From positions 1-52,519 of the forward strand of contig JAOPZW010000375.1 in the NCBI GenBank assembly GCA_025963905.1: 52,519 bases of DNA, in the 5' to 3' direction. The notes beneath the pieces were generated by a model, which ran no database searches, was not told where the DNA came from, and worked only from the letters and a program-made list of their open reading frames with translations. Source of the stretch: Solirubrobacterales bacterium. Its GTDB lineage: Bacteria; Actinomycetota; Thermoleophilia; Solirubrobacterales; Solirubrobacteraceae. This document shows positions 1,302 to 38,541 of this stretch, piece after piece (position 1 is the stretch's first letter; every line of letters starts with the position of its first letter). The position numbers were made by a program, and so were the translations under genes.

Positions 1302-1572
1302 TGGACGTGGTCAGAACCTACTTGCAGCGGGGGAGGTCACGCCGACATCGCGGCCCCGGTGCATCGTGCCGTGGCGGCGCGGACGCTCGGGCTCCTGGCG
1401 CAAGTCGGCAAGCGGACGCCGATCGTGATGACCGGCGGCGTGGCGAAGAACCCGGCCGCCGTGCACTACATGTCGCAGGCGCTCGGGCTCCCGGTCCAGG
1501 TCCCGGGCCACCCGCTGATCTCGGGCGCCTTCGGCGCCGCCCTCCTGGCGCTCGACGAGCATCTCGGACGCT
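1302..1572 (+). pseudogene. Remnant of a BcrA/BcrD/BadF/BadG/HgdC-type (acyl-CoA dehydratase/reductase activase) ATPase; C-terminal ~80 aa only
   Basis: The frame of ORF 1248..1721 reads ...ADIAAPVHRAVAARTLGLLAQVGKRTPIVMTGGVAKNPAAVHYMSQALGLPVQVPGHPLISGAFGAALLAL. This matches the conserved C-terminal end of these ~260-aa ATPases. A neighbouring frame just upstream reads SLDVVRTYLQRG, resembling SEVISLLARG, which suggests a frameshift near 1325..1338. No N-terminal ATPase (GIDxGST) part is present. Confidence 0.4.
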
Positions 1573-1747
1573 CGGGCGCCGTCGGCGCCCGGCGGCGAGA
1601 GGACGTGCTCATCGGTTCTGCGCCGGTCGCCGACGTGCCTGACTGCCATACCTGCGACGCGGCCCGGACGGCCGACGCGCCCTCCCGGCTGCTGCAGCTC
1701 ACGCCGCTGGTCCGGAGATAGGCGGGGCCCGCCACCCCAGGAGTTCT

Positions 1748-4700
1748 CTAGCGCCTCAGGTTCTTCAGGAGGTGTCGCGTCGACTCCGCCGGGTCCGTCG
1801 ACAGCTCGGCCAGCGCGGCGCGGCAGCCACGGAAGCGCGCGATGACCTGGTCGTCCTGGCCCATCGCCGCGGCCACGCGCATGGCCAGCCGCCACGCGCT
1901 CTCCCGGTAGGGGTCTGACGCCAGGACGAGCTGGACCTGCTGCTCCGCGCGACCGAGGTCGCCGAGCTCGAAGGCCACTTCGGCGATGTCGAGGCTCGCG
2001 TCGGTAGCGAGCGACGCCAGGACCGCTCGGCGCTTGTCCACCCACGGCGACGTGACGCCCGGCAGGTAGTCGCCCGATGCCGTGAGCGCGAGGGCGTCAT
2101 CCAGGATCTCGATGCGCGCCGCGCCCCCTACCCGCGCGGCGCTCTGGACGAGCCGCTCGAGGCGCAGCCCGTCGCTGCTCAGGTGCTCATCGCGCCAGGC
2201 CACCTCCTCGGCGCCGACCTCGAGGGGCGCGTCGTCGGGCAGCACGTCCTTGAGGCGCGCCAACGCCTGGCGCACGTAGCTGCGGGCCGAGCCGTCGGTG
2301 CGGCCGTCGAACAGCTCGTCCAGCAGCGTCTGGCGGCTGGCTCGCCGTCGGTGCGTCGCCAGGTAGGCGAGCAGCTCGAGGCTCTTGCTGAGCTTCGGAT
2401 GCACCTCCTCGCCGTCGACGACGAGCGCCGGCGCTCCGAACTCGCGCACGTGCACGCGCGGCAGCAGAGCGACGTCGGAGAGCGCGCCCTCGGCCATCAG
2501 CGCGCGCCCGATCCGATGCCACGGGGAGTCGACGCCGGCCTCGGCGTCCAGCCGGCGCGCGACGACCGAGGGGAACTCGCGCAGCGCTTGGAGCAGCAGG
2601 TAGTTCGAGGCCTGACGCTGCGCCCCGGCCAGCGCCAGGTCGGCCGCGGCGTCGGCCGCGTCCTCGTCGCCCAGCCGCCACTCGGCCTCCGCGAGGTAGA
2701 CGCCGGCGGCCGGCAAAAAGAACAGGCGATCCCATTGCTGGAGGAGCGCCACTGCTCTGCGCAGGTGGACGCCGGCCTTGACCGCGTCGTCGTCGAGGAG
2801 GGCCATCAGCCCGCGCCACAGCTCGATCTGCTCCAGCGTGCGCAGCCGCCGGCGCGCCGTCGGATCGGCTTCGACCTTGGCCAGCGCGACCGCCGCCGCG
2901 GCCGTGTCGCGCCGCAGCCGGAGCGCGAGCATCGCCTCGAACAGGTAGTGCAACATGACGCTGAGCGCGCCGCTGCGACCGACCAGCTCGCGGCCTTCTC
3001 GCGCGGCCGCGTCGGCTTCGCCGTGCCGTCCGAGATCGGCCATGATCTCGCCGAACTGCCGCACCCGCGACGACGTCCAGCCGCTCGTCGAGGACTCCTG
3101 CAGCAGCGCCAGCGCCTCCTCGTGGCGGCCCACCGCGCGCAGCGCCTCGACGCGGCTGGAGCGCGCCGCGGCCCACGGGGTCGTCATCGGCTCGAGCAGG
3201 CGGTCGAAGCGTCCCTGGTAGAGGTCGAGCCGGGCCAGGAACCCGTGGAGCGCGGTGTGCTCCGGCCGGTCGCGGTAGTGGTGCCGGTCGTCGGCCATCG
3301 CCACGCCGAGCTGGAACCGCCACACGTCCCGGTCCGGGCCGGGCGGGAGGCGCTCGATCGTCTCGTAGGCGTCATCCAGGCGGCTGACATGCAGCAGGCA
3401 CATCGCCACCGCGCCGGCGGCGGCCGGGTCGAGCGGCGCGCCGGCGCTCAGCGCGAGCAGCCGGTCGGCCGCCTCGGCGCCGGCCTCGAACTCCTCGTGC
3501 TCCATCGCGACGACGAGCTCGGCGTAGGTCAGGACGCGGGAGCCGCGCACCACCGCCTCGCGGAACGCGCGCAGCCAGGACGACGCCACGGCGAAGTCGC
3601 GCCGCCGCAGCACGCCGGGCATCGCCCGCTCGCCGATCGCCTCGGCGGCGGCGACGTCGTCGGCCTCCAGGAACGCGGCGACCGCGTCGTCGGGACGCTC
3701 CTCCTCGGCCAAGAGGGCGCCGAGACGGCGGCGGAGCGCGCGCACCGTCGTCACGTCGAGCTCGCGCAGCCGTTGCTGCAGGAACTCGCGGAACCGCGGG
3801 TGGCACCGCATCTCGACGCCGTCGGCACCGAACGCGACGGGCGCGTGATGCGACCGCAGGCTCGCGAGCAGCGCGCCCGCGTCCGCGACGCCCAGCGCCT
3901 CGGCCCGCGCCGGCGTGACCTCGTCGAGCAGCGACGTGACGATCAGGAACCGCCGCTCGGCCGCGGGCAGCGTCGCCATGATCTCCGAGGAGAGGTAGCC
4001 GCTGAGCGGATCGGACTCGCCGCCGGCCCCGTGCGGGTGCGCGGGCGAGCGCCACGCCTCGAAGAGCACGCCGGCGACCCAGCCGCCGGTCGCCGCGACC
4101 GCGGTCTCGGCGTCGTCGGCCCGCTGGCCCAAGGCCGCCAGCGCGCCGGCGGCCTCCTCGAGCGTGAAGGCCAGGTCGGCCTCGGTCACCGCCGCGGCGC
4201 CCGCGTCGCGCGCGCCGCCGAGATGGAGCGGCACGTCGCGACGCGAGATGAGGATCACGCGCAGCGTCGGGGGCGCGAAGCGCAGGAACGCCCCGAGGGC
4301 GGCTTTGGCCTGGGGCGCGTCAACGAGGTGCTCGATCTCGTCGATCACGAGCGTCAGCTCGCGGGCGCCGACCGCCTCGGCCAGCAGGCCGGCGGCCTCG
4401 ACGTGGGTGACATCGTCGGCCAGCGCGACGGTGGCCGCGTCCGGCAGGCGGGGCAGCACGCGCGCCAGCGCGGACTCGAGGTAGGCGAGCAGCCGGCCCG
4501 GCGCGGCCTCCGACGCGTCGAGGGTCAGCCAGGCGACCGGCCGCGACGACGTCGCCACCGCCTCGACCACGGCGGTCGTCTTGCCCGCGCCGGCCGTCCC
4601 GCGGACCCAGACCAGGCTGGTCATCTCGGCCAGCTCGGCGATGCGCGACGCCAGCCGCGGTCGCGCCACCACCGATCCCCGCACCGACGGCGGACGGACC

Positions 4701-4869: not shown

Positions 4870-5904
4870 TTGATCACGCCAGCCGACACCGAGTTCCACC
4901 CGCGCGACCCCTCGATCGCGAGCTGGACCGAGACCATGTTCATGATCTTCTCGGTCCCCGAGGCCAACATCCTGGGCAACGTCTACGTCCTGGCACGGCC
5001 GAACCTCGGCATCGCGACGTCGTCGATCATGGTCCAGCAGGGGTTCTGCCGCCAGCCGTACGAGATCGACTTCTGCGATCCGCAGGTGCACCTCGCCTGC
5101 CCGCCGTCGTTCCGCGACTTCTCGCTGGCCAACGGGCTGACTGTAGAAGTCACCAAGCCGCTGCTCGGCTATCGCATGTCCTACGCCGCGTCTTCGGGAG
5201 CCTGCGCGTTCGATCTCGACTTCGAGGCGTTGATGCCGCCGTTCGACATGCACGATCCCCGCGAGAACCCGCTGCACGTCGCCGGCGACGACTGGGCGGA
5301 GCCGCACAAGGCGACGACCGAGGCGACGAAGGGCCACTTCGACGTCGTGGGGCGCGTCACCGGCGAGTTCGAGCTGCGCGGGCGCCGCTACCGGGTCGAC
5401 TGCGTCGATGGGATGGACCACAGCTGGGGCCCCCGCTCGGAGGAGAGCGCGGGCACGGGTTCGCGCGCGGCCGCCTGGATGCACGTCACGTTCGGCGACG
5501 ACTTCGGGATGCATCTGGCAATGGCCCTGGACCTGCGCGACGGCGAGGTCGTCTACGACGGCCTGCGCTTCGGCTACGTCATGGACGGTCGCGAGGTCGT
5601 CGGCCTGGTCGAGGCCGACGTGCGCACCACCCGCGTCGACATGCTGGGCGTGAGCAACCACATCCAGGCGCGCGACGCGCGTGGGCGCGAGTACGAGTTC
5701 TTCGGGACGGCCGTGGCCGGCGCGCCCTGGTACTCGTTCAACCCCTGCTGCGTGTCGTTCCAGAGCCTGTACCGCTACCAGCACGAGGGCCGGGTCGGCT
5801 ACTGCGAGGGCGCGGACATCTTTGGGTTGAACTTCCTGGGCGAGCGCCTGTCGCGCCACTGCCGGGAACGGGGAGCGCCGGCGCTCGCGCCGACGACGTC
5901 GTAA
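4870..5904 (+). CDS. Uncharacterised beta-rich protein, module copy 1 (paralogue of 9093..10124)
   Basis: The TTG at 4870 is in frame with ORF 4738..5904. That start gives (M)ITPADTEFHPRDP, colinear with the paralogue's MITAADSEFHPRDP. The two share blocks LIFSVPEA.IL.NVYV.ARP.LG, GQGFCRQPYE(I/M)DF, GRVTGE..LRGRRY.VDC.D.MDHS(W/F)G.R and PWYSFNP. GC3-rich. Confidence 0.75.
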   Translation: MITPADTEFHPRDPSIASWTETMFMIFSVPEANILGNVYVLARPNLGIATSSIMVQQGFCRQPYEIDFCDPQVHLACPPSFRDFSLANGLTVEVTKPLLGYRMSYAASSGACAFDLDFEALMPPFDMHDPRENPLHVAGDDWAEPHKATTEATKGHFDVVGRVTGEFELRGRRYRVDCVDGMDHSWGPRSEESAGTGSRAAAWMHVTFGDDFGMHLAMALDLRDGEVVYDGLRFGYVMDGREVVGLVEADVRTTRVDMLGVSNHIQARDARGREYEFFGTAVAGAPWYSFNPCCVSFQSLYRYQHEGRVGYCEGADIFGLNFLGERLSRHCRERGAPALAPTTS

Positions 5905-5921: not shown

Positions 5922-7148
5922 ATGGGGGTCATGGAGATCACACGCGGCTGGGACTTCGCCCTGCTCGACGATCCGCCGCCGGACGTCGTCGAAGAGCTGC
6001 GCCGGCGCTATCCGGTCGAGCGCGAGACCGATCGCCAGCTCGTGCGCAAGCTGGGGCGGCGCGGCAGCGGGCCGTACGTGCCGGTGTCCCTGGAGGAGCT
6101 CAGCGACGCGGTCGCGAGGATGCTCGCCGACACGGTCGACGGCCCGTCCTCCATCACCAACGCCCGCTGGTTCACCGGGGGCGCGTCGAAGGTGCAGATG
6201 GGCTTCGACCTCGCGTGGCGGGACGCCGGCGGTCCGCGCCGGGACCGCCTCATGGTCCGCATGGATCCCGCCGAGTCGCACAACGCGACGAGCAAGCTGC
6301 GCGAGTTCGAGCTGCTGCGCGAGCTGCACGGGCGGATGCCGGTGCCCGAGGCCTTCTGGGTCGACGACGACGCGCTCTGGTTCCCGTATCCCGCGTTGGT
6401 GTACTCCTTGATCGACGGCATCGCCAAGCCGCGGGAGGGCGTCGGCGGCAAGGTCGTGGGGCTGGGCACGAACTTCGGGCCCGGCCTGCGTGAGCGGCTC
6501 GCGCCGCAGTACGTGGAGCACCTGGCGCGGATCCACACGCTCGACCTGCACGACGCCGAGCTGCCCAGCTTCGACGTGCCGGAGGTTGGCACGACCCAGA
6601 GCGCGCTCTGGGAGCTCAACCGCGCGCGGCGGCTGTGGGAGGAGGACCGCGGCGTCGACGTGCCGCTGATGGAGGTCGCCGGCAACTGGCTAGAGCGGAC
6701 GCTGCCGGTGCTCGACCACGTCGGCCTGGTCCACGGCGACTACCGCAGCGGCAACTTCCTCTACGACGAGGAGACGGCGCGCTTCACCGGCTGGCTGGAC
6801 TGGGAGCGCGCGCACCTCGGCGACCGCCACCGCGACCTCGCATGGTCGACGCAGCCCGTGTGCGGCCACTACGCCGAGGACGGCCGGACCTACCTCGTGT
6901 GCGGCCTCGTGCCGCTCGACGAGTTCTACGACAATTACTCGAAGTTGTCGGGGTTGACCGTCGACCCGGAGCGTCTGCGGTGGTATCGGGTCCTCAACGC
7001 CTACTCCATGGTCGCGAGCACCGTGGGCTCGGCGTGGCGCGTGGCGCGCCTGGGCAAGACGCACCAGGACATCCTCCTGGCGCGCGTCGAGGGCATGCGC
7101 GGCGTGGTGCTCGAAGAGCTGCGGACGTTGTTGGAGGAGGTGCTGTGA
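5922..7148 (+). CDS. APH-fold phosphotransferase (ACAD10/11 N-terminal / LvaA-like kinase family), module copy 1
   Basis: 408 aa starting at ATG 5922 (GGAGAGGG at 5911..5918). Catalytic-loop motif LVHGDYRSGNFLYDEE and metal-binding DWERAHLGDRHRDLAW are present. Colinear with 10121..11335. Confidence 0.85.
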   Translation: MGVMEITRGWDFALLDDPPPDVVEELRRRYPVERETDRQLVRKLGRRGSGPYVPVSLEELSDAVARMLADTVDGPSSITNARWFTGGASKVQMGFDLAWRDAGGPRRDRLMVRMDPAESHNATSKLREFELLRELHGRMPVPEAFWVDDDALWFPYPALVYSLIDGIAKPREGVGGKVVGLGTNFGPGLRERLAPQYVEHLARIHTLDLHDAELPSFDVPEVGTTQSALWELNRARRLWEEDRGVDVPLMEVAGNWLERTLPVLDHVGLVHGDYRSGNFLYDEETARFTGWLDWERAHLGDRHRDLAWSTQPVCGHYAEDGRTYLVCGLVPLDEFYDNYSKLSGLTVDPERLRWYRVLNAYSMVASTVGSAWRVARLGKTHQDILLARVEGMRGVVLEELRTLLEEVL

Positions 7149-7678
7149 TCGACGCGACCGACACGACGCTGCGGGCGTCGATCAAGGCGCTGCGGGACGT
7201 CGTCGCCCCGGCGCTCGACCCGGACGCGACCCAGGCGGCCGAGCAGCTGCGCCTGGTCGTCGACGCGCTCGACTTCCTGCGCCAGCGCGTCGGGCTGGTC
7301 GAGGAGCGCGAACTGTTCCTGCTCGAGCACGACCTCGCGCTCGCCCGGGCGGTCACCTCGCCCGCCGCGGCGTGCGCGCCCGCCTGCGCCGACGCGCTGG
7401 CCGCCGCGATCGCCCGCGCCGAGGACGTCCTGGCGCGCGCCGCCGTGCGACGCGCCGAGGTCGTCGAGGCCGGAGCGGCCCTCGGCGCCGCTCTGCGCGA
7501 GCTGATTCGCGACGCGGCGACGGCCGACCCGGCCGCGCGCGACGCGATCGAGCGCGCGACGGTTCGCGCCGCACGCGCGACCATCGCGGCCGACCGCGCC
7601 TGGTACCTGCCGCAGGGCTTCGACCCCGACCCGGGCGCGGTGCCGCCGATCGAGGCGGCGCTGGCGGTGCGCGAGTAG
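7145..7678 (+). CDS. All-helical partner protein of unknown function, module copy 1
   Basis: The GTG at 7145 overlaps the kinase stop (GTGA). 177 aa, Ala/Leu/Arg-rich, helical. It shares IKAL.DVVAP..DPD...EQL.LVVD.L and ERAWYLP.GFDP with 11332..11928. GC3-rich. Confidence 0.75.
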   Translation: MIDATDTTLRASIKALRDVVAPALDPDATQAAEQLRLVVDALDFLRQRVGLVEERELFLLEHDLALARAVTSPAAACAPACADALAAAIARAEDVLARAAVRRAEVVEAGAALGAALRELIRDAATADPAARDAIERATVRAARATIAADRAWYLPQGFDPDPGAVPPIEAALAVRE

Positions 7679-7839: not shown

Positions 7840-9072
7840 ATGAGGCACAAGCGATGGGCATCCCTGCTGACCCTGGTTGCGGCGGCGGGTGGGCTGGCGG
7901 CGTGCGGGTCGAGTCACGACGGCGGCTCGACCGGTTCGAGCGGCTCGAGCGGGGGCGGAGGCGCGGCGCTGAAGATCGCGCTCGTCCCGCCGACCGGCGG
8001 CGCGCTCGAGCAGCTCGGCAAGAACGCGGTGCGCGGCTGGCAGTATGCGGCGGCCGAGGCCAACGCGAAGGGCGGCATCGCCGGTCACAAGGTCGAGATC
8101 GTCACCAGCTCGACCGACGGCCAGCCGAACACGACGCTGCGCGCCGTGCGCAAGCTCGTGACGCAGAACGGCGCCAAGTACGTCAGCGGCATCGTGACCT
8201 CGCCGGAGGTCGGCGCGCTGCAGCAGCAGCTCCCGGCGCTCGGCGCGCTCGCCCTGCTCGGCGACGGCCAGGACGACGCGCTCACCGGCGCCAATTGCAA
8301 CGCCAACGCGTTCCGCGCGACGCAGTCGGCCTCGATGCTGCTGGCCGGCTTCCAGCAGATGCTCACCAAGTCCAAGGCGCAGAAGTGGGCGATCCAGGCG
8401 GTCGACTACTCGACCGGGCACACCGCGGCCAAGCTGTTCCAGACGGCGGCGGAGAAGGCGGGCAAGAAGGTCGTCCTCGTGCAGTTCGCGCCGCTGGGCA
8501 CGACCGACTTCGGGTCATACATCTCGAAGATCCGCGCATCGGGCGCCGACGGCTTCTTTGGCCTCGTCCCGTCGCTGGACGGCGTCGCCTTCATCAACCA
8601 GGCGTCGCAGTTCAAGCTCTTCGACACCTTCAAGTCGGTGTTCTCCTACAACATGGTCACCGAGCCCAATCTCCCGACGCTCGGTGCCAAGACCGTCGGC
8701 TTCCTGTCGAACCTCGGATACGACGAGTCCTCGACCAACCCCATGAACAAGTCGTTCGTCGCGGGGTTCCAGAAGCAGTTTGGCGGCGTGCCTGAGACGG
8801 TGGCGGCCGACAACTACCTCGCGGCGCAGCTGCTGTTCGCCGGCGTCAAGAAGGCCGGGAGCGTCGACCCGCAGAAGGTCAAAGCGGCCCTCGACGGCAT
8901 CTCGTTCGACTCGTTCGTCGGCCCCGTGACGATGGGCGCCGACCACCAGCTCGTGCGACCCGCCTACATCGCCGAGGTCGCCAAGGGCGGCGACGGCTAC
9001 GTCTTCAAGACCGTCGCCGCCATCCCCAGCAGCGTCACCCGCCCGACCCCCGACCAGGCTTGCAAGCTCTAG
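7840..9072 (+). CDS. LivJ/Peripla_BP_6-type ABC substrate-binding lipoprotein (SBP1)
   Basis: ATG 7840 is preceded by GGAGGA (7827..7832). Signal peptide with lipobox LAAC, then a Gly/Ser linker. Type-I PBP blocks are present (KIALVPPTGGALEQLGK, ANAKGGIAGHKV, FAPLGTTDFGSYISKI). Confidence 0.9.
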   Translation: MRHKRWASLLTLVAAAGGLAACGSSHDGGSTGSSGSSGGGGAALKIALVPPTGGALEQLGKNAVRGWQYAAAEANAKGGIAGHKVEIVTSSTDGQPNTTLRAVRKLVTQNGAKYVSGIVTSPEVGALQQQLPALGALALLGDGQDDALTGANCNANAFRATQSASMLLAGFQQMLTKSKAQKWAIQAVDYSTGHTAAKLFQTAAEKAGKKVVLVQFAPLGTTDFGSYISKIRASGADGFFGLVPSLDGVAFINQASQFKLFDTFKSVFSYNMVTEPNLPTLGAKTVGFLSNLGYDESSTNPMNKSFVAGFQKQFGGVPETVAADNYLAAQLLFAGVKKAGSVDPQKVKAALDGISFDSFVGPVTMGADHQLVRPAYIAEVAKGGDGYVFKTVAAIPSSVTRPTPDQACKL

Positions 9073-9092: not shown

Positions 9093-10124
9093 ATGATCAC
9101 CGCAGCGGATTCCGAGTTCCACCCGCGGGACCCGGCGGACTGGCGCTGGACCGAGACGACCCCACTGATCTTCTCGGTCCCGGAGGCGGGCATCCTCGCC
9201 AACGTCTACGTCGCCGCCCGGCCGGGGCTCGGCGTGGCGCTCTCGTCGGTCGCGGTCGGCCAGGGCTTCTGCCGGCAGCCCTACGAGATGGACTTCACCG
9301 ACGCGCAGATGCACTTGCCGTGCCCGGAGTCGTTCCTGAAGTACTCGCTGCCCAACGGGTTGTCGGTGGAGTTGACGAAGGCGCCGACCGAGTACCGCTT
9401 CCGCTACGAGTACCAGCTGGGCGACGCGTGCCGGTTCGACGTCGAGTTCCAGGCGCTGCACGACCCGTTCGACGCGACCGACCCCGACCACAACCCGGCG
9501 CTGCTCACCACGGTGGGCAGCGCCGCCGACGAGCGGCTGGGAGACGAGTGGGGCAACGCGTCGGGCACGGGCGCGCCGGCCTTCCCCAAGGGCCATTACG
9601 AGATGATGGGCCGGGTCACCGGCGAGCTGTGGCTGCGCGGCCGGCGCTACGACGTCGACTGCTACGACGTGATGGACCACAGCTTCGGGACGCGGACCGA
9701 GACCAGCAAGCGGGCCGTGTCCTACATCTCGGCGGTGTTCGGCCCCGACTACGGCATCCACCTCGCGGTGCCGATGGAGGTGACCGCGGGGGAGACGGTC
9801 TACGACGGGTTCCGGCTCGGCTACGTCATGGAGGACGGCGAGCTGTTCGGCGTCACCGACGCGGAGGTCGTCGCGTCGTCGGGAACCGACATGCTCCCGA
9901 TGAACAGCCACATCCGCGCGACCGACGTGCGCGGCAAGGAGCACGAGCTGCACGGGGCGGCCCTGGCCGGGCACCCGTGGTACTCGTTCAACCCGTCGCA
10001 CGTCTGCTTCCAGAGCCTGATGCGCTGGCACCACGGCGACCGGGTCGGGTACGGCGAGAAGGGTGACATCTTCGGCCTGGAGTTCCTGGCCGAGCGCAAG
10101 TCCCGCCACGGGCGGCGGCGATGA
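9093..10124 (+). CDS. Uncharacterised beta-rich protein, module copy 2
   Basis: ATG 9093 lies 20 nt after the SBP1 stop, with GAGAGG upstream. 343 aa, colinear with 4870..5904. Confidence 0.85.
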   Translation: MITAADSEFHPRDPADWRWTETTPLIFSVPEAGILANVYVAARPGLGVALSSVAVGQGFCRQPYEMDFTDAQMHLPCPESFLKYSLPNGLSVELTKAPTEYRFRYEYQLGDACRFDVEFQALHDPFDATDPDHNPALLTTVGSAADERLGDEWGNASGTGAPAFPKGHYEMMGRVTGELWLRGRRYDVDCYDVMDHSFGTRTETSKRAVSYISAVFGPDYGIHLAVPMEVTAGETVYDGFRLGYVMEDGELFGVTDAEVVASSGTDMLPMNSHIRATDVRGKEHELHGAALAGHPWYSFNPSHVCFQSLMRWHHGDRVGYGEKGDIFGLEFLAERKSRHGRRR

Positions 10125-11335
10125 CGGTGGCCGGCGTCGACCGCGACCGGCCCACGGCGGCGTCCATCGACGAGATGCGCCGCCGCTTCCCGACCGAGCG
10201 CGAGACCGACGCGCTGCTGGTCCGCAAGCTCCAGCGCCGCGCCGGCCCGCCGTACCGCCGGATCGCCAAGGACGAGCTCTCAGCGTGCCTGCGCGCGATG
10301 TTCGCCGACACGCTGCCGGGCACGTTCGCGGTCTCCGACGAGCGCTGGTTCACCGGCGGCGTGTCGAAGATCCAGCTCGGGTTCACGCTGGAGTGGGACG
10401 ATCCCAAGCGCGGGCGGTCACGGGACCGGCTCATGGTGCGGATGGACCCGTCGGAATCGCTGAACGCGACGAGCCGCGTGCGGGAGTACGAGCTCCTGCG
10501 GGCCTTCGACGGCGTGCTCCCGGTCCCGCGGGTCTTCGGGCTGGATCCCGCCGGCCGCTGGTTCCCGGAGCCAGCATTGTTGTACGCCTTCGTGGACGGC
10601 GTGACGCGGCCGACCGGCGCGACCTCCGGCCAGGTCTCCGGGTTGGGCACCAATTTCGGGCCCGCGCTCCGGGGGCGACTCGCGCCGCAGTTCCTGGAGC
10701 ATCTGGCGCGCGTCCACACCTTCGACCACGCGTCGGCGGACCTCACGGCGCTGGACCTCCCGCGCGCGGGAACGACGGAGAGCGCGCTGTGGCAGCTCAA
10801 CCGGGCGCGGCGCGTCTGGGAGGAGGACCGCGCCGACGACCTGCCGCTCATGGAGGTGGCGGCCAATTGGATGCAGCGGAACCTGCCGACCACGGACGTC
10901 GTCAGCGTCGTCCACGGCGACTTCCGCAGCGGCAACTTCCTGTTTGACGAGGCCACCGGCGAGATCCGCGCCTGGCTGGACTGGGAGCGCGCGCACCTCG
11001 GCGACCGCCACCGCGATCTGGCCTGGACGACGCAGGCGCTCTTCGGCCACTACGGCGCGGGCGACGATCGCGGAACCTACTACGTGTGCGGCCTGCTGCC
11101 CGTCGACACGTTCTACGAGCGCTACGAGGAGGCGTCGCGGTTGGTGGTCGACCACGACGCGCTCGCGTTCTACCGGATCCTCAACTGCTACCAGATCGTC
11201 GTCTCCACGCTCGCGACGGCCTACCGCGTGGCGCGCCTCGGGAAGTCCCACCAGGACATCCTCCTCGCGCGCGTCAGGGGCGAGGTGCCGATCGTCATCG
11301 GGGAGCTGCGCGCATTGCTGAAGGAGCGCCTGTGA
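10121..11335 (+). CDS. APH-fold phosphotransferase (ACAD10/11-N/LvaA-like), module copy 2
   Basis: ATGA overlap with 9093..10124. Contains VVHGDFRSGNFLFDEA and DWERAHLGDRHRDLAW. 404 aa. Confidence 0.9.
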   Translation: MTVAGVDRDRPTAASIDEMRRRFPTERETDALLVRKLQRRAGPPYRRIAKDELSACLRAMFADTLPGTFAVSDERWFTGGVSKIQLGFTLEWDDPKRGRSRDRLMVRMDPSESLNATSRVREYELLRAFDGVLPVPRVFGLDPAGRWFPEPALLYAFVDGVTRPTGATSGQVSGLGTNFGPALRGRLAPQFLEHLARVHTFDHASADLTALDLPRAGTTESALWQLNRARRVWEEDRADDLPLMEVAANWMQRNLPTTDVVSVVHGDFRSGNFLFDEATGEIRAWLDWERAHLGDRHRDLAWTTQALFGHYGAGDDRGTYYVCGLLPVDTFYERYEEASRLVVDHDALAFYRILNCYQIVVSTLATAYRVARLGKSHQDILLARVRGEVPIVIGELRALLKERL

Positions 11336-11928
11336 CCGCCAACCACATCCACAACGGTCTGGGGGCCGCGATCAAGGCGCTGCTCGACGTCGTCGCGCCG
11401 AGTGTCGACCCCGACGACCCGCTGGCCCACGAGCAGCTCCAGCTCGTCGTCGACTACCTCGAGCTCGTCCGCTCGCGCACCGACCTGATCTGGGACCGCG
11501 AGCGCCTGACGCTGCGCCACTACCTCGCGATGGCCGACGCGGTCGGGCCGTCCGTGTCGACGTGGCTGGACGGCGCGGCCTCCGCGGGCCGGCGCGCGCT
11601 CGGCGACGCCGACGCCGGTGTGCGTCCGCTGCGCGACGCGGCCGCCGAGCTGGCTGGCGCGCTCTCCGAACTCGTCCGGGCGCTCGGCGAGCCCGACGCC
11701 GACCCGGCGCTGTGCGCCCGCGTCGAGGTCGTCGTCGTCGACGCCAGCCAGGTCCTCGTGGACGTCGAGCGGGCGTGGTACCTGCCGCTCGGCTTTGACC
11801 CAGCGGCCGCAGAAGTGGGTTCGGTCGAAGCTGCGCTGCAGCACGCCACGGCCGAGCTCGACCGCGGTCCTCAGCCTGCCCTCTACCAGGGCGAGGGCCC
11901 CGGCACCGCACCCCAAGCACCTCGCTGA
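11332..11928 (+). CDS. All-helical partner protein, module copy 2
   Basis: The GTG at 11332 overlaps the kinase stop (GTGA), the same junction as copy 1. 198 aa with the conserved blocks listed for 7145..7678. Confidence 0.75.
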   Translation: MTANHIHNGLGAAIKALLDVVAPSVDPDDPLAHEQLQLVVDYLELVRSRTDLIWDRERLTLRHYLAMADAVGPSVSTWLDGAASAGRRALGDADAGVRPLRDAAAELAGALSELVRALGEPDADPALCARVEVVVVDASQVLVDVERAWYLPLGFDPAAAEVGSVEAALQHATAELDRGPQPALYQGEGPGTAPQAPR

Positions 11929-13942: not shown

Positions 13943-15181
13943 ATGCGAGAGGAGAGCACGTTGAGGTACAAGATCGCGGCAGCGCCGCTCGCGCTGCTGC
14001 TCGCGGCCGGGATGGCCGCCTGCGGGTCGTCGTCGCACGGCGGTGGGTCGAGCGGCGACGGCCCCGTGACCGTCGCGCTGATCCCGCCGCTCAGCGGCGC
14101 GCTCGGGCAGTTCGGCAAGGACACCGTGACCGCCTGGCAGTTCGCGGCCGACCAGGCCAACGCCAAGGGCGGCATCGACGGCCACGAGGTCAAGATCGTC
14201 ACGACCGCGACCGACGGGTCGCCGGGCACGACCGTCCGCCTCGCCCGCCAGGCCGTCGCCCAGCACGGCGCGCACTTCATCGGCGCGGTCATGACCGGAC
14301 CCGAGAACTCCGCGCTACAGAAGCAGCTGCCGGCGATGAACGCGCTCTCGTTCAACGGCACGGCCAACGACGACGTGCTCAACGAGGGCGAGTGCAGCGC
14401 CAACGCGTTCCGCGCGGTCCAGTCCGCGCAGATGGACATGAACGGGATCGTCAACACCCTCAAGTCGCTGCCCGGCGACAAGTGGGCGATCCAGGCGGTG
14501 GACTACTCGATCGGCCACAGCTCCGCCGACGCGTTCAAGGCCGCGGCGGCCAAGGCCGGCAAGCAGGTCGTGCTGACGCAGTTCGCGCCGCTCGGGACCA
14601 GCGACTTCGGGTCCTACATCACCAAGTTGAAGAGCAGTGGCGCCGACGCGCTGTTCAGCGTCACCTACGGCGCCGACGCGATCGCGCTCATCAACCAGGG
14701 CGCGCAGTTCAAGCTCTTCGACCAGTTCAAGACCGTCCTGGGCTTCAACCAGGTCTCCGAGCCGCTGTTCCCCGCCCTCGGCAAGAAGATCGATGGGTTC
14801 TACAACCAGGTCAACTACGACGTGGACGCGAGCAACGCGGACAACAAGGCCTTCGTCGCCGCGTGGACCAAGAAGTACGGGTCGCCGCCCTACTACGTCC
14901 CGGCGGATACCTACCTCGCCGCGCAGATGCTGTTCAAGGGCATCGAGCGGGCGCACAGCACCGACCCGCAGAAGGTCAAGGTCGCGCTGGGTGGCCTGTC
15001 GTTCGACAGCATCGCCGGGAAGGTGACGGTGCGGCCGCAGGACCACCAGCTGCTGCGCGCGTCCTACGTCGGCCAGGTCGTGCCCAAGACCGGCGGGCCC
15101 GGCGGCCTCGGGTTCAAGATCGTGGCGGAGACGCCGGCCAAGGTGACCACGCCCGCGGCGAGCCCGTCGTGCAAGTTGTAG
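13943..15181 (+). CDS. LivJ/Peripla_BP_6-type ABC substrate-binding lipoprotein (SBP2)
   Basis: Lipobox MAAC. Colinear with SBP1 and SBP3. An alternative start is TTG 13961, which has GAGAGGAGAG 5 nt upstream and gives MRYKIAAAPL..., parallel to the SBP1 N-terminus. Confidence 0.88.
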   Translation: MREESTLRYKIAAAPLALLLAAGMAACGSSSHGGGSSGDGPVTVALIPPLSGALGQFGKDTVTAWQFAADQANAKGGIDGHEVKIVTTATDGSPGTTVRLARQAVAQHGAHFIGAVMTGPENSALQKQLPAMNALSFNGTANDDVLNEGECSANAFRAVQSAQMDMNGIVNTLKSLPGDKWAIQAVDYSIGHSSADAFKAAAAKAGKQVVLTQFAPLGTSDFGSYITKLKSSGADALFSVTYGADAIALINQGAQFKLFDQFKTVLGFNQVSEPLFPALGKKIDGFYNQVNYDVDASNADNKAFVAAWTKKYGSPPYYVPADTYLAAQMLFKGIERAHSTDPQKVKVALGGLSFDSIAGKVTVRPQDHQLLRASYVGQVVPKTGGPGGLGFKIVAETPAKVTTPAASPSCKL

Positions 15182-16620
15182 GCCAGGACACCCCGCTGAC
15201 GCTGAGCGCCGCCGTGGCGGCTGTCCGCGACGGCGTGGTGACCAGCGCGCAACTCGTCGAGACCGCGCTTGCGGCGGCCGACGTGTGGGACCCGGTGATC
15301 GGGACCTACATCGCGCGCTTCGACAACGCGGCGCGCGCGGCGGCGGCGGATGCCGACCGGGCGCGCGCCGCCGGCGGGCCTGTCGGCCCGCTGCACGGCG
15401 TCCCGATCGCGGTCAAGGACATCCTCGCCACGCGCGAGGGGCCGACGACCGCGCAGAGCGTCGTCGCGGACCCCGCGTGGGGCGCCGGCACCGACGCGGT
15501 CGCGATCGCGCGCCTGCGCTCGGCAGGCGCGATCGTGATGGGCAAGACCTCGACGATGGAGTACGCGGTCGGCCTGCCCGACGCGACCAAGCCGTTCCCG
15601 GTCCCGCGCAACCCGTGGGACCCCGGCCGCTACACGGGCGGCTCGAGCTCGGGCAGCGCGAGCGGCCTCGCCGCCGGGCTCTTCCTCGGCGCGGTTGGCA
15701 CCGACACCGGCGGCAGCATCCGGATGCCGGCGGCGTTCTGCGGGGTCTCGGGCCTGAAGCCGACGTTCGGCCGCGTGCCGAAGTCCGGCTGCCTGCCGCT
15801 CGGCTTCAGCCTCGACCACGTCGGCCCGATGGCGCGGTCGGCGCGCGACTGCGCGCTGATGCTCGCGGCGATGGCCGGGCCGGACCCGAGCGACCGCCAG
15901 GCCGCCGACGTCGCGGTGGGCGGGTACGAGGCCGCGCTGACCGGCGAGCTGCGCGGACTGCGGATCGGCGTCGACTCGCTTGCGGCGCCCGCCGCGCACT
16001 GCCTGGACCCGGCCGTCCCGGTCGCGCTGGACGCGGCGGTCGAGGCGCTGCGCGACCGCGGCGCCGAGGTCGTCCCGGTCGCGCTGCCGTTCTACGACGA
16101 GCTGTGCACGGCCGACATCATCATCTTGATCTCCGAGGGCGCGGCGTTCCATATGCGCGACCTGCGGACGCGCTGGCAGGAGTACGCCGCCGGCACCCGG
16201 ATGGTGCTCGGCTCGGCGCCGCTCTACAGCGGCGCGGACTACGTCCAGGCCCAGCGCGCCCGCGAGCTGGGCCGGCAGGCGTTCGCCCGGCTGCTCGCCG
16301 GCGAGCAGCTCGACCTCGTCGTCACGCCGACGCTCGGCGTCGGCGCTGTGCCGATCGACGAGGCGGCCGACGTCGCGCTCGGCCCGAAGTGGCCGGCGAT
16401 GTTCACCCCGTACTGGAACGCGCTCGGCCTGCCGGCGCTGACCGTCCCGATGGGCTTCACCGGCGAGGGGCTGCCGATGGGCCTGCAGATCGCCGGCCCG
16501 GCGTTCCGCGAGGACGTCGTCCTGCGCGCCGGCGACGCCTACCAGACCGTCACCGACTGGCACCTGCGCGTCCCTGTCCCGCCCACCCGGACCCCGAGCC
16601 CGGCCGCGGCCGCGGCCTGA
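15169..16620 (+). CDS. Amidase-signature (GatA-like) family amidase
   Basis: Contains GVPIAVKDI and the signature GGSSSGSASGLAAGLFLGAVGTDTGGSIRMPAAFCG. The start is set at GTG 15169 (13-nt overlap with SBP2) because no ATG precedes the conserved N-terminus. Confidence 0.85.
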   Translation: MQVVGQDTPLTLSAAVAAVRDGVVTSAQLVETALAAADVWDPVIGTYIARFDNAARAAAADADRARAAGGPVGPLHGVPIAVKDILATREGPTTAQSVVADPAWGAGTDAVAIARLRSAGAIVMGKTSTMEYAVGLPDATKPFPVPRNPWDPGRYTGGSSSGSASGLAAGLFLGAVGTDTGGSIRMPAAFCGVSGLKPTFGRVPKSGCLPLGFSLDHVGPMARSARDCALMLAAMAGPDPSDRQAADVAVGGYEAALTGELRGLRIGVDSLAAPAAHCLDPAVPVALDAAVEALRDRGAEVVPVALPFYDELCTADIIILISEGAAFHMRDLRTRWQEYAAGTRMVLGSAPLYSGADYVQAQRARELGRQAFARLLAGEQLDLVVTPTLGVGAVPIDEAADVALGPKWPAMFTPYWNALGLPALTVPMGFTGEGLPMGLQIAGPAFREDVVLRAGDAYQTVTDWHLRVPVPPTRTPSPAAAAA

Positions 16621-16947: not shown

Positions 16948-17982
16948 CTACCGGTGAACCCTCCCGAGCGCGCGCGGACCGTAGGCGTACGTGCTGCTAC
17001 GTGTGAGGGCGAACTCGAAGATGCCGATGCCCTGTTGCCCAGACCACTCGAACGCGGTCAGGCGATCGGTCAGCGCGGTGTCGACGGTCTTCGGGGTCAC
17101 GGAGCCGTCGAGCGGATAGACGTCGTGCTCGAGGTGGTCGCGGCCGAGGGGCTTGCCGTGGTGGCCGCCGTAGCCGGCTCCCGCCATGTAGCCGCCGCCG
17201 GCACGGGCGTCGGCGTCGAGGGTGTAGGCCTTGCCCGAGGCGGTGGTCACCTCGACGCGGCCGCCCACGAGATCCAGGTTGTCGTCGAACTCCAGGTCGT
17301 GGCCGACGTCGACGATCGGATCGACGCTGCCGTCGGCGAGCATGACGCCGCCCTCCAGGAGCAGGCGGCTGTGGTCGCGGCCCTCGACGAGGAGGAAGCC
17401 GACGGCGCGGTCGGCGAACTCCGCCTGGTACCAGATGTGCAGGCCCTGGCCGCCCGACATGGTCCGGATGCCGCGCGAGCGATCGCGCACGCCCCACCAG
17501 CCGTCGACCGCGACGGCCGCGCTGTCCAGCGTGAGCGTGCCCTCGTAGCGACCGGGCTGGAAGAGGTGGTCGAACGCCGCGGTGGTCACGTCCCCCTGCT
17601 TGACGTTGACCTCGTCGTACCAGGCCCCGCCGCTCGCGCGCCAGACGAGGTCGAACTCCACGTTGGTGGGGTTGGGCCCGAGCGCGACGTGCCACGCGGT
17701 CATGGGCTCGACCACGTCATAGGAGAACGGGCCGGCGCCGCGGCCGTCGGTCGCGCTGAGCTCGGTCGAGAACCGGACGTTGCGCTGCTCGCCGCCAGTT
17801 GTCACGACGACGAACCCGTCGGCCACGTCCTTGCGCGGGTGGACGCCGAACCCGAAGAGGATCGATGGGTCAGTGCCGGCGCCCGCCGGCGGATGCAGGT
17901 TGAAGACGAAGCGGTCGAAGAAGCGCTCGTGCAGGCTGGGCGCGTCCTTGCGGACCAACGCATCGTGGAACCCGGCCATCAC
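16948..17982 (-). CDS. Third, divergent member of the beta-rich protein family
   Basis: 344 aa. [30 protein letters not shown] aligns with GRVTGEFELRGRRYRVDCVDGMDHSWGPR of 4870..5904. It is followed by a similar W/F-rich block ([10 protein letters not shown] vs WMHVTFGDD). ATGA overlap with the upstream B12-binding gene. Confidence 0.8.
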
Positions 17983-18404
17983 GCCACCCGCACCGCGACG
18001 ACGGCGGACCCGATGAAGTCGATGATGTCCTGCGTCGGCGCGCCCGGCGTGAAGACCTCGGCAACCCCGAGGTCCTTCAGCGGCGCGATGTCGTCGTTGG
18101 GGATCGTGCCCCCGACCGTGACGAGGACGTCGTCGATGCCCTGCTCCTTGAGCAGCTGCACGATGCGGGGCACCAGCGTCATGTGGGCCCCGGAGAGGAT
18201 CGACAGCCCGACGGCGTCGGCGTCCTCCTGGATGACGGTCTCGACGATCTGCTCCGGGGTCTGGTGCAGCCCGGTGTAGATCACCTCCATGCCGGCGTCG
18301 CGCAAGGCGCGCGCGATGATCTTGGCTCCGCGGTCGTGGCCGTCGAGACCCGGCTTGGCGACGACGACGCGGATCTTGCGCTGAGGAGGTGCGGCAGCGG
18401 CCAT
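17979..18404 (-). CDS. Stand-alone cobalamin (B12)-binding domain protein (acyl-CoA mutase small-subunit type)
   Basis: 141 aa. Contains [36 protein letters not shown] (the DxHxxG B12 motif) and ...GLSILSGAH...VTVGGTIP. Confidence 0.9.
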
Positions 18405-18414
18405 GTCGGCTATG

Positions 18415-18429
18415 CTAACGATCGTTCAC
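18415..18429. promoter_or_regulatory. Operator site 1: CTAACGATCGTTCAC (palindromic core AACGATCGTT at 18417..18426)
   Basis: On the minus strand it reads GTGAACGATCGTTAGCAT-AGCCGAC-ATG(18404), so the motif overlaps a TANNNT -10 box 7 nt from the start codon. Confidence 0.6.
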
Positions 18430-18456
18430 TCAGGACGCCAGGTGAGGGAGGCCAGG

Positions 18457-19194
18457 ATGCGCGACATCGCGCTCGTCGACACGTTCAACCTGCGCGACCT
18501 CGGCGGCTATCCCACGGTCGACGGCCGGCATGTCCGCTGGCGGCGCCTCTTCCGCGGCGCCGGGCTGCAGCGCCTGGACGGGGACGACCTGGAGATGGTG
18601 CGGGCGCTCGGCATCGTCACCGCGATCGACCTGCGCACCGACGGCGAGGTCGAGGCCACCGGCACCTACCCGGTCGGCCGGCTGCCCGCGACGTTCCACC
18701 ACCTGCCGATGATCGAGCGCATCTGGGACCTCGACGGTCTGGACCCCGGCGCGCTGGCCCACGATTACCTCGTGGACCGCTACCGCGACATGCTCGCGGA
18801 GGGCGCGCCGACCATCGCCACCATCATGGACCTCCTGACCCGCCCGGGCGCGCTCCCCGCCGCGTTCTACTGCGCCGCCGGCAAGGACCGGACCGGCGTG
18901 CTCGCGGCCCTCGTCCTGGGCGCGCTGGGCGTGGAGCCGGCCGCGATCGTCGCCGACTACCACCTGTCCAAGGAGCGGGTCGAGCGCATCCGGGCGCGTG
19001 CTCTCGCGGCGTCCGGCGCCGGCGCATCGGCGATGGTCGCCCAGCCGCCCGCGTTCATGCAGGCGCCGGCCGAGACGATGCAGCTGCTGCTGGCGTGGAT
19101 CGACGAGGTCCACGGCTCGACGCCGGGCTACCTCGCCTCGATCGGCGTCGCGCCGGCGACCGTCGACGCGCTGCGGGCCGCGCTGCTGGGGTGA
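18457..19194 (+). CDS. Protein-tyrosine/dual-specificity phosphatase-fold protein (Y_phosphatase3-like)
   Basis: CX5R active-site loop YCAAGKDRTG. N-terminal NLRDLGGY block. ATG 18457 is preceded by GAGGGAGG. Confidence 0.85.
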   Translation: MRDIALVDTFNLRDLGGYPTVDGRHVRWRRLFRGAGLQRLDGDDLEMVRALGIVTAIDLRTDGEVEATGTYPVGRLPATFHHLPMIERIWDLDGLDPGALAHDYLVDRYRDMLAEGAPTIATIMDLLTRPGALPAAFYCAAGKDRTGVLAALVLGALGVEPAAIVADYHLSKERVERIRARALAASGAGASAMVAQPPAFMQAPAETMQLLLAWIDEVHGSTPGYLASIGVAPATVDALRAALLG

Positions 19195-25404: not shown

Positions 25405-26378
25405 ATCGACAGCACCAACTTGCCGAAGTGCTCGCGACGCTCCAGCTCAGCGTGCGCCTCGGCGGCGCGGGCGAGCGGCCGGACGTCGTGGACGACCGGC
25501 CGCCACGACGGATGGCGGCCGACCAGGTCCAGCAGCGCCGCGAAGTCGCGCGGGGAGCCCATCGTCGTCCCGAGGATCGTGTGCTGGCCGAAGTAGAAGG
25601 GGCGCACGGGCACCGCAGCGACGTCGCCGGCCGTCGCGCCGAACGCGACCAGTCGGCCGCCGGGGTTGAGCGTCGCGAGGCCGTCGGGCCACGTCGCGCC
25701 GACCGAGTCGATGACGAGGTCGACGCCGCGCTCGCCGGCCAGCTCGCGGGCCTGGGCGACCCAGTCCGCATCGCTGTAGAGGACGCCGCCGTCGGCGCCG
25801 AGCTCGCGCGCGCGGTCAATCTTGCCGGCGGACGACGAGGTGACGAGGACGCGCGCGCCGGCCAGGGCGGCGAGGGCGACCGCCATCGTCGAGACGCCGC
25901 TGCCGGCGCCGAGGACCAGCACGGTCTCGCCGGCCTGTAGGCTGCCGCGCGTGAACAGCGCGCGGTAGGCGGTGACGCCCGCCAGGGGCAGGGCGGCGGC
26001 CTCGGCCCAGGACCAGCCGGCGGGCATGGCAAGGACATTGCCTTCGGGCACGGCGACCAGCTCGGCGTAGGTGCCGTCGGTGTGGTCGCCGAGGATCTCG
26101 AAGTCCGGCGCCGGGAAGCGGTCGTCGGCCCCCCAGTGCAGCGACGGCGCGATGACGACGGCCTCGCCGGTGTCGCCCCGCACGCCCGCGCCGTCGGCAC
26201 CGGGGATCCGCGGCAGCGCGACGTCGTATTGCCCGTTGCGGACGAGCACGTCGTGCCAGTTCAGCGCCGCGGCGCGCAGCTCCACGACGACCCAGCCCGG
26301 CGGCGCCGCCGGGTCCGGGCGCTCGCCGAAGACCAGCGCGTCGGGTCCGCCGAACGCCCCGAGCGAGACCGCGTTCAC
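25401..26378 (-). CDS. Medium-chain dehydrogenase/reductase, quinone-oxidoreductase-like
   Basis: GTG at 26378 (VNAVSLGAFGGPDALV...). Contains GAGSGVSTMAV and a C-terminal HFGKLVLSI. GTGA overlap with the upstream ACAD-like gene. Its stop shares CTAG with the convergent ligase gene. Confidence 0.85.
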   Translation of the reverse strand: MNAVSLGAFGGPDALVFGERPDPAAPPGWVVVELRAAALNWHDVLVRNGQYDVALPRIPGADGAGVRGDTGEAVVIAPSLHWGADDRFPAPDFEILGDHTDGTYAELVAVPEGNVLAMPAGWSWAEAAALPLAGVTAYRALFTRGSLQAGETVLVLGAGSGVSTMAVALAALAGARVLVTSSSAGKIDRARELGADGGVLYSDADWVAQARELAGERGVDLVIDSVGATWPDGLATLNPGGRLVAFGATAGDVAAVPVRPFYFGQHTILGTTMGSPRDFAALLDLVGRHPSWRPVVHDVRPLARAAEAHAELERREHFGKLVLSI

Positions 26379-27448: not shown

Positions 27449-27459
27449 GCCCGCCACTA

Positions 27460-37852: not shown

Positions 37853-38541
37853 CCCCGCTGCTGGAGATCGATGACATCTACGCGTCCTACGGTGGCGCGC
37901 TCGTGCTGGACGGCGTCTCGCTGTCGGTCGACGAGGGCGAGACCGTGGGGCTGATCGGACGCAACGGGGCGGGCAAGTCCACCACCTTGCTCTCGATCTA
38001 CGGCGTGCCGACTGTGCGCGGCGAGATCCGCGTCAGCGGCAAGGCGCTCGGCAAGCGGCAGTACGAGCCGGCTTCGCGCGGCGTGAGCCTCGTCCCACAG
38101 GGTAAGCGGATCTACCCCAACCTGACGGTCGAGGAGAACATCATGTTGGGCCGCGCCTCGGGCCGGAAGGGCGCGTGGACGGTGGCGAGGCTGAAGGAGC
38201 TTTTCCCCAACCTGGCGCGCGCGTCCGGGCGGCCGGGCAACCAGCTCAGCGGCGGCGAGCAGCAGATGCTCGCGATCGCGCGGGCGCTGATGGCCGAGCC
38301 GCAGGTGCTCCTGCTCGACGAGCCCACCGAGGGCCTCGCGCCGGTGATCATCGACGAGCTGATCGACGCGCTGCGCGTCATCCAGGAGGCGGGCACCGCG
38401 CTCGTCCTCGTCGAGCAGCACATCCGGATGGTCCAGCAGCTCGCGACGCGCTTCGTCGCCCTCGGCAAGGGGCGCGTCGTGACGCAGGGCGCCGTCGGCG
38501 ACCTGGAGACGCGCGCGGTCCAGCAGCTGGTCGCACTATGA
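37849..38541 (+). CDS. ABC transporter ATP-binding protein (LivF family)
   Basis: ATGA overlap. Contains GRNGAGKST, LSGGEQQML and LLLDEPTEGL. Confidence 0.9.
   Translation: MTPLLEIDDIYASYGGALVLDGVSLSVDEGETVGLIGRNGAGKSTTLLSIYGVPTVRGEIRVSGKALGKRQYEPASRGVSLVPQGKRIYPNLTVEENIMLGRASGRKGAWTVARLKELFPNLARASGRPGNQLSGGEQQMLAIARALMAEPQVLLLDEPTEGLAPVIIDELIDALRVIQEAGTALVLVEQHIRMVQQLATRFVALGKGRVVTQGAVGDLETRAVQQLVAL

Follow-up and report, generated by a model that had tools for sequence, protein, structure and literature searches.

Where no neighbouring group activates it, a hydroxyl can normally be removed only by oxygen-sensitive radical enzymes; the alternative is to spend one ATP and turn the hydroxyl into a phosphate that can leave. 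To our knowledge, this phosphorylate-then-eliminate strategy has so far been documented only for levulinate and other 4-hydroxy acids (LvaABC, ACAD10/11) and for anaerobic cholesterol degradation (25-HSK/25-PSL). This study analysed a stretch of 52,519 nucleotides from a Solirubrobacterales bacterium (contig JAOPZW010000375.1 of assembly GCA_025963905.1; hereafter the window), in which a cassette of three genes, encoding a kinase, a small helical partner and a beta-rich protein with the domains DUF7065 and DUF7064, is present twice. Each of the two modules is read here, with a probability of roughly 55%, as a three-protein ATP-dependent dehydratase, in which the kinase and its partner would phosphorylate the substrate and the DUF7064 protein would eliminate the phosphate.

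The described systems with which the cassette can be compared are I) 25-HSK/25-PSL of Sterolibacterium denitrificans, II) the Rv3168-Rv3169 operon of Mycobacterium tuberculosis, and III) LvaABC of Pseudomonas putida together with ACAD10/11. 25-HSK (A0A7Z7HU23) phosphorylates a tertiary steroid alcohol, and the lyase (25-phosphosteroid lyase, 25-PSL) eliminates the phosphate to give an alkene, which amounts to an ATP-dependent dehydration (PMC8449060, PMC11061730). M. tuberculosis encodes the APH-type kinase Rv3168 together with Rv3169, after which the Rv3169 family is named as its founding member, in one operon (PMC5340868). LvaA and ACAD10/11 phosphorylate 4-hydroxyacyl-CoA, after which a domain with the acyl-CoA dehydrogenase (ACAD) fold eliminates the phosphate (PMC12440821, PMC6692424), and LvaA requires a small partner of 12 kDa, LvaB (PMC6692424; PP_2792). 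Of the known systems, 25-HSK/25-PSL (and Rv3168-Rv3169) comes closer to the cassette than LvaABC does; the proposed mode of action is that of 25-HSK/25-PSL, yet the cassette is not a member of that system. An earlier note, made from this DNA alone, had likened the kinase and its partner to LvaA-LvaB and ACAD10/11. The logic of phosphorylation and elimination and the sector of the kinase family bear this likeness out in part, but 25-HSK/25-PSL and Rv3168-Rv3169 offer the better analogy.

The window has a G+C content of 72% and was annotated with a gene map based on G+C at third codon positions (GC3) and with Pfam and NCBIfam scans, by which it is densely packed with catabolic genes. The genes of the two modules (A and B) and two further genes that bear on them are as follows.

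4870-5904, plus strand: module A beta-rich protein, DUF7065 + DUF7064, 344 amino acids, 38 kDa, predicted phosphate-eliminating lyase (Pfam, AlphaFold model, Foldseek, motif)
5922-7148, plus strand: module A APH-fold kinase, 408 amino acids, 46 kDa (Pfam APH, invariant motifs, PDB relatives)
7145-7678, plus strand: module A small helical partner, 177 amino acids, 18.5 kDa, pI 4.8 (GTGA junction, AlphaFold model)
7840-9072, plus strand: solute-binding lipoprotein, LivJ/UrtA-like, between modules A and B (Pfam Peripla_BP_6)
9093-10124, plus strand: module B beta-rich protein, DUF7065 + DUF7064 (Pfam, BLASTP, ATGA overlap with kinase 2)
10121-11335, plus strand: module B APH-fold kinase, 404 amino acids (Pfam, motifs)
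11332-11928, plus strand: module B small helical partner, 198 amino acids, 20.8 kDa (GTGA overlap with kinase 2)
16948-17982, minus strand: third DUF7064 paralogue, of the Rv3169 / 25-phosphosteroid lyase family, outside both cassettes (NCBIfam, phmmer, Pfam)

The open reading frames (ORFs) at 5922-7148 and 7145-7678 were confirmed at these coordinates, with a strong coding signal in the gene map. The translational coupling of kinase and partner described in the earlier note holds for both modules: the GTG start of partner 1 overlaps the TGA of kinase 1 (GTGA, with GGAGGAGG just before), and the junction of kinase 2 and partner 2 is a GTGA overlap as well. The module B beta-rich gene overlaps kinase 2 through ATGA, and its module A counterpart is separated from kinase 1 by a 17-nt gap containing GGGAGAGGG. 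The start of the second beta-rich gene is probably 9093 (MITAAD...), not 9060, as suggested by the conserved MIT... N-terminus of its homologues. Identity between modules A and B is 58% for the kinases, 54% for the beta-rich proteins (BLASTP) and 41% for the partners, and the copies are old paralogues.

The arrangement in the window is not a chance layout of ORFs. Profiles of all three proteins were used to search 77 non-redundant loci from Actinomycetota, Alpha- and Betaproteobacteria and Flavobacteriaceae, in which 89 kinase genes were scored. A DUF7064 gene was present in the fetched locus for 87 of the 89 kinase genes; 51 times it stands directly upstream of the kinase, and 11 times it comes right behind the partner. 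Of the 89 kinase stop codons, 75 are overlapped, by 1 or 4 nt, by the partner gene, whose bond with the kinase is thus closer than that of the beta-rich gene. In many genomes the cassette occurs repeatedly, up to five times or more. One Rhodobiaceae metagenome-assembled genome (MAG) contains at least four (L006, L009, L035 and L062) and one Pseudomonadota MAG likewise (L008, L023, L032 and L056), and each of these adjoins a different transporter; in Rubrivivax, two cassettes (L068/L069) lie 14 kb apart. The divergence of paralogues inside one genome (about 55%) equals that of orthologues between phyla. A literature search, whose coverage did not extend to the 25-PSL structure paper, where relatives may be discussed, found no description of the cassette or of DUF7064/DUF7065.

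The beta-rich proteins of modules A and B match DUF7064 with 47 and 56.1 bits (cutoff 24.7) and DUF7065 with 36.5 and 30.4 bits (cutoff 27), in the order DUF7065 then DUF7064. An AlphaFold model (AF2; built from 29 sequences, pLDDT 89.2) found 25-phosphosteroid lyase as its best Foldseek match (PDB 9g4c, 9fzn and 9g2i, E 4e-14 to 9e-13), with a probability of 1.00 and a TM-score of 0.63/0.60 over about 364 columns; the matched entries include phosphate- and product-bound ones. Both proteins are two-domain, beta-rich and about 340-360 amino acids long. The D-H-S-W-G-P-R of the module A protein also occurs in 25-PSL, and within the D-x-S-W-G-x-R motif the D, S, G and R do not vary between 25-PSL, the Rv3169-like paralogue of the window and the cassette proteins. 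In the family of the cassette protein, the His, Arg, Asp and Ser residues that never change are H10, R43, H156, R170, D183, S185, R189, H215 and R302. This paralogue, at 16948-17982, links the DUF7064 proteins to the characterised lyase: it scores 188.6 bits on the NCBIfam family Rv3169_fam (cutoff 150) and 34.6 bits on Pfam DUF7064, and it matches 25-PSL (9fzn) by phmmer at 2.4e-18. The 25-PSL fragment taken from the phmmer alignment scores 272.7 bits on Rv3169_fam and is thus a family member, so that the family of 25-PSL has a true member in the window outside the cassettes; a Pfam scan of the same fragment found no family. The fold match and the paralogue support both the proposal of the earlier note that the beta-rich protein may take, or assist, the elimination step and the phosphorylation-elimination logic behind it.

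The fold also invites a different order of events, namely that the AttH-fold protein acts first, as a hydratase, isomerase or cyclase on an unsaturated substrate, and that the alcohol so formed is the substrate of the kinase; its phosphorylation would either drive a hydration that is unfavourable by itself or serve to obtain a phosphorylated compound. AttH, CrtC, kievitone hydratase and the fungal pericyclases share the two-lobed beta architecture of the cassette protein, and pericyclases, kievitone hydratase and AttH are its next Foldseek matches (E 2e-9 to 7e-8; AttH 2ich at E 6.6e-8 and TM-score 0.60, also 7a0t and 7e22). The 25-HSK reaction is fully reversible (PMC8449060), so that the sequence does not reveal the direction, and a phosphorylated product with subsequent dephosphorylation would agree with the SurE-like phosphatase gene that comes after the cassette in 11 actinobacterial loci (cluster C16, e.g., L041 20170-20991). 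However, the phosphate lyase is the closest match by a wide margin (E 4e-14; hydratases and pericyclases reach 2e-9 at best), and the shared Arg, Ser and Asp of the motif would fit an anion-binding site. The AttH/CrtC group acts on alkenes or polyenes without a phosphorylated intermediate or a link to a kinase. We know of no pathway that couples an AttH-type hydratase to a kinase, and hydration before phosphorylation is considered unlikely.

The kinases fit the dehydratase reading as well. Pfam APH (PF01636) matches kinase 1 with 80.6 bits and kinase 2 with 78.7 bits (cutoff 23.2). The HGD(Y/F)RxxN and DWE motifs named in the earlier note are present in both, as VHGDYRSGNFL and LDWERAHLGDRHRDLAW in kinase 1 and as VHGDFRSGNFL with an identical second motif in kinase 2. 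The catalytic loop VHGD(Y/F)RSGNFL, LDWER with its metal-binding Asp, GGxSK of the nucleotide loop and the beta3 arginine R113 do not vary among 15 family members taken from several phyla, and the kinase appears catalytically intact by its sequence. Its relatives number in the hundreds, with 55-60% identity between phyla, and occur in Baekduia (88%), Variovorax, Paracoccus, Rhodobiaceae, Rhodococcus, Nocardia, Streptomyces and Flavobacteriaceae; mean column identity is 72% over Actinomycetota, Proteobacteria and Flavobacteriaceae.

The kinase was placed by comparing the family profile with all PDB sequences. It matched 9o56 (E 1.4e-14), 3ats, which is Rv3168 (2.2e-14), 3dxp, a stand-alone kinase like the N-terminal part of ACAD10/11 (8e-14), 9fsg (1.6e-11) and 8v3v, which is ACAD11 (3e-9; 8v3u at 4.2e-8). 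The ACAD11 match is of 39 bits and covers residues 199-309 only, and Rv3168, 3dxp, 9o56 and 9fsg score 47-57 bits. We presume 9fsg to be 25-HSK, a guess from its length and deposition series; neither 9fsg nor 9o56 is cited anywhere in the literature searched. Choline, homoserine and methylthioribose kinases were absent among the PDB matches to the profile. A clustering with aminoglycoside, choline or homoserine kinases, which the earlier note had named as grounds for refutation, was thus not seen, and the cassette kinases are a distinct family inside the sector of the APH superfamily that contains Rv3168 and the ACAD10/11-N-like kinases. ATP-dependent dehydration is the best reading because the cassette joins a kinase of this sector with a 25-PSL-like protein.

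Source annotations name these kinases as "aminoglycoside phosphotransferase family", and weak Pfam and NCBIfam matches to APH(3'), macrolide and capreomycin phosphotransferases exist. It could accordingly be supposed that the kinase serves detoxification or resistance, phosphorylating an antibiotic or xenobiotic, and that its two neighbours are unrelated or regulatory. Such matches lie far below the family cutoffs (42 bits versus at least 205) and cover the catalytic loop only, which holds for the macrolide and capreomycin kinases and also for APH(3')-VIII (4h05, E 7e-6) in the PDB comparison. Moreover, translational coupling and joint inheritance across phyla bind the three genes together, and the several copies per genome lie beside catabolic genes and uptake, not efflux, systems. 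A resistance function is accordingly regarded as very improbable. PADLOC gave no hits, and membership in a defence system was rejected.

The small partner is predicted to be an all-helical bundle (AF2 model, pLDDT 90.9), as the earlier note had supposed. It belongs to no Pfam or NCBIfam family in the scans of the window proteins, and a fold search against the PDB gave no meaningful match (best E 0.6, TM-score 0.2-0.4). Hits to the SrpI encapsulin (Pfam, 17 bits, below cutoff) and to a family 2B encapsulin (NCBIfam, 15 bits, cutoff 400) were dismissed as chance. An exhaustive profile search yielded 1013 representatives at 50% clustering, and the relatives among the 150 matches listed are stand-alone proteins of about 133-250 amino acids. 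The partner is acidic; conservation is seen in its N-terminal helix and in a C-terminal RAW(Y/H)LPxGFDPDP tail. The family has no invariant Ser, Thr, Tyr or His, which rules out a role as phospho-acceptor, and the partner looks like a binding subunit rather than an enzyme.

Placed beside 25-HSK/25-PSL, the cassette has in common a phosphotransferase-family kinase of about 40-46 kDa, a lyase or lyase-like protein of the same fold (TM-score 0.63, E 4e-14) with the D-x-S-W-G-x-R motif, and the proposed logic of phosphate as a leaving group that yields an alkene (PMC8449060, PMC11061730). The differences are that the cassette is one translationally coupled unit, whereas the 25-HSK gene has no lyase gene nearby (PMC8449060); that a third small protein is nearly always part of it; and that the genes around it encode importers of small polar solutes and generic enzymes of CoA metabolism (77 loci), not steroid functions. 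No genes for a Mo-dependent steroid C25/C26 dehydrogenase or other DMSO-reductase-family enzymes are present among the annotated genes of the window. Rv3168-Rv3169 likewise combines a kinase of the same sector (E 2.2e-14) with a protein of the DUF7064 superfamily (PMC5340868), yet both are members of sister subfamilies and not of the cassette families. This operon is a two-gene unit for which no small helical partner is reported; it is TetR-regulated and not beside a transporter, whereas the cassette usually lies near one.

Several points weigh against the dehydratase reading. A comparison of the cassette beta-rich profile with PDB sequences found nothing significant. The cassette proteins score 36.9 and 16.2 bits on Rv3169_fam (NF053593), weak matches (E 2e-9) below the 150-bit cutoff, and hhalign of their profile against the Rv3169-like paralogue gave a probability of 20.8% (E 1e-3). 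Identity to 25-PSL is about 16%, as between separate subfamilies. Because these direct profile comparisons are weak, the cassette DUF7064 proteins are best taken as a sister subfamily and not as the Rv3169 family proper; the proposed link to 25-PSL rests mainly on fold, the shared Pfam DUF7064, one motif and the weak NCBIfam match. The AttH/CrtC superfamily also holds hydratases and pericyclases, and the fold allows chemistry besides phosphate elimination. Furthermore, 25-HSK works as a monomer, with its gene apart from that of the lyase (PMC8449060). As it needs no partner, the role of the small protein is without precedent in that system.

Neighbouring genes were clustered over the 77 loci and distances were counted for 92 kinases; a locus-trained gene caller was used, as the GC3 caller missed many genes in loci of moderate G+C. 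The steadiest neighbours are carboxylate-type uptake systems. A gene for solute uptake lies within 4 kb of 69 of the 92 kinases, often directly abutting the cassette, and four transporter classes are represented, namely Liv-type ABC, TTT/TctC, TRAP and MFS. Solute-binding proteins of the TctC, DctP and LivJ types are encoded beside cassettes of Variovorax, Paracoccus and Streptomyces. The substrate may, for this reason, be a free solute and not an acyl-CoA, and the transporter linkage favours a free imported solute. A compact Streptomyces operon has the order regulator, ABC transporter, DUF7064, kinase, partner and SurE, with no CoA enzyme. SurE-family genes directly follow the partner gene in Streptomyces, Rhodococcus and Nocardia cassettes and overlap it in L086 (12767-13546); this phosphatase may clear dead-end phosphorylated products or may belong to the pathway.

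The enoyl-CoA hydratase (ECH), short-chain dehydrogenase/reductase (SDR), ACAD and CoA-ligase genes reported around the module by the earlier note were described correctly. Genes for CoA ligases, ACADs, CoA-transferases, enoyl-CoA hydratases and thiolase-like proteins lie within 4 kb of 44 of the 92 kinases, CoA-related enzymes lie within 8 kb of 58, and SDR genes are common around the cassettes. This richness could point to a system of the LvaAB/LvaC or ACAD10/11 type, in which kinase and partner phosphorylate a 4-hydroxyacyl-CoA, an ACAD-fold enzyme from another part of the window eliminates the phosphate and the DUF7064 protein is an accessory. The kinase domain of ACAD11 (3e-9), a neighbouring clade, and 3dxp fall in the sector of the cassette kinases; LvaA, like the cassette kinase, has a small partner, which it needs (PMC6692424); and the chemistry of phosphorylation followed by elimination (PMC12440821) is that proposed for the cassette. 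In addition, the kinases are very highly conserved across paralogues, and identity is a uniform 55-60% whether paralogues or orthologues are compared, as might be expected if CoA or the like served as a common handle.

The eliminases would differ, though. That of LvaC and ACAD10/11 is an FAD-containing ACAD fold with an Arg/His helix, which acts on a strictly CoA-ester substrate, whereas the third gene of the cassette encodes an AttH-like fold, and it is the gene for this 25-PSL-like protein, rather than one for an ACAD, that is the constant companion of the kinase. No ACAD gene is conserved in the neighbourhood (one occurs within 6 kb at 16 of the 77 loci), some operons consist of a transporter and the cassette without any CoA enzyme, and the partners, compared by size only, have 18.5-20.8 kDa versus 12 kDa for LvaB. 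The ACAD-fold protein at 26375-27457 (minus strand), which the earlier note had named among the surrounding genes as lacking the canonical catalytic machinery, is not of the LvaC or ACAD10/11 type: the ACAD middle domain is not matched, over its full length the protein best matches heteromeric ACAD subunits of the ChsE/IpdE type (PDB 6wy8 and 4x28_D; NCBIfam IpdE2, 138 bits, below cutoff), and it does not match ACAD11 at 1e-5. These matches and the absence of one to ACAD11 rule it out as an LvaC analogue. Its neighbours are genes for a Zn-dependent dehydrogenase and an SDR, not for a partner ACAD subunit.

Genuine 3dxp-like (ACAD10/11-N-type) kinase genes occur on Comamonas and Novosphingobium plasmids, where they overlap or abut ACAD genes in the layouts ACAD-SDR-kinase and ACAD-kinase-P450 (L080 2846-5831; L083 4587-6816) and look like split versions of ACAD10/11. 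These plasmid loci have no small partner and no DUF7064, and their kinases score 53-64 bits on the cassette kinase profile, versus about 570-760 in the fetched cassette loci; tblastn of the plasmids with a 3dxp fragment found ACAD-linked kinases and no lvaB-like gene. An elimination by an ACAD in the manner of LvaC is therefore judged rather unlikely for the cassette. The CoA-metabolism genes of the window are real, yet the comparison of genomes does not show them to be specifically tied to it.

Under the dehydratase reading, the APH-fold kinase and its coupled helical subunit would act as a stoichiometric complex and phosphorylate a hydroxyl that is hard to eliminate, carried by a small organic compound imported through the adjacent binding-protein-dependent transporter. 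We infer that the partner binds the kinase; it would be an obligatory subunit, possibly bridging to the lyase. The substrate, whose nature we likewise infer, may be phosphorylated as a free acid or amide or after CoA activation. The DUF7065/DUF7064 protein, a putative AttH-fold relative of 25-phosphosteroid lyase, would act second and expel the phosphate to leave a C=C bond, and the product would then be processed by ordinary hydratases, dehydrogenases and beta-oxidation enzymes encoded nearby.

Further genes of the window touch on these questions. The solute-binding lipoprotein between the modules starts at 7840, has a signal peptide with an LAAC lipobox and scores 212 bits on Peripla_BP_6; among NCBIfam families it is most similar to UrtA-type binding proteins, though below the cutoff. 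Three genes for LivJ/UrtA-like binding proteins (7840-9072, 13943-15181 and 33999-35072) stand against one permease/ATPase set (35185-38541), and an amidase gene (15169-16620) comes after one of them, which hints at an amide substrate. Divergent from module A lies a large gene for an AfsR/SARP-like regulator (1748-4684, minus strand; AAA ATPase, BTAD and a winged-helix C-terminus), a candidate regulator of the cassette. A short ORF at 1359-1721 (plus strand) matches BadF/BadG/BcrA/BcrD-type ATPases at its C-terminal end only and may be a gene remnant.

The Rv3169-family gene at 16948-17982 has a 4-nt overlap with, and lies downstream of, a gene for a stand-alone B12-binding domain (17979-18404, minus strand). 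This domain is of the methylmalonyl-CoA-mutase C-terminal type; neither a mutase large subunit nor a kinase is encoded nearby, and the pair is divergent from a Y_phosphatase3-family gene (18403-19194, plus strand). Paired FAS1_DH_region and MaoC hot-dog genes and a further MaoC gene (39331-40145, 42135-42602) flank an acetyl-CoA-synthetase-like ligase and resemble heteromeric enoyl-CoA hydratases of the ChsH1/ChsH2 type.

It is possible, although this wider claim is put forward only tentatively, that the cassette represents a widespread new class of three-subunit ATP-dependent dehydratase, in which members of the helical family hold an APH-fold kinase and an AttH-fold phosphate lyase physically together and the paralogues, each with its own transporter, handle different substrates. 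If so, a labile, high-energy phosphoester would be made and eliminated without release. The cassette would be a third and far more widespread form of the phosphate-as-leaving-group strategy, found in soil and aquatic Actinomycetota, Proteobacteria and Flavobacteriaceae and often in several copies per genome. A function would be assigned to two Pfam DUFs and one unnamed family, the routine annotation of these kinases as aminoglycoside phosphotransferases would be corrected, and a role would be suggested for the Rv3168-Rv3169 operon of M. tuberculosis. Through the adjacent binding proteins, the substrates can be approached directly by experiment. Kinase-driven dehydration would then be a general catabolic strategy of bacteria, and not a curiosity of levulinate and anaerobic sterol metabolism.

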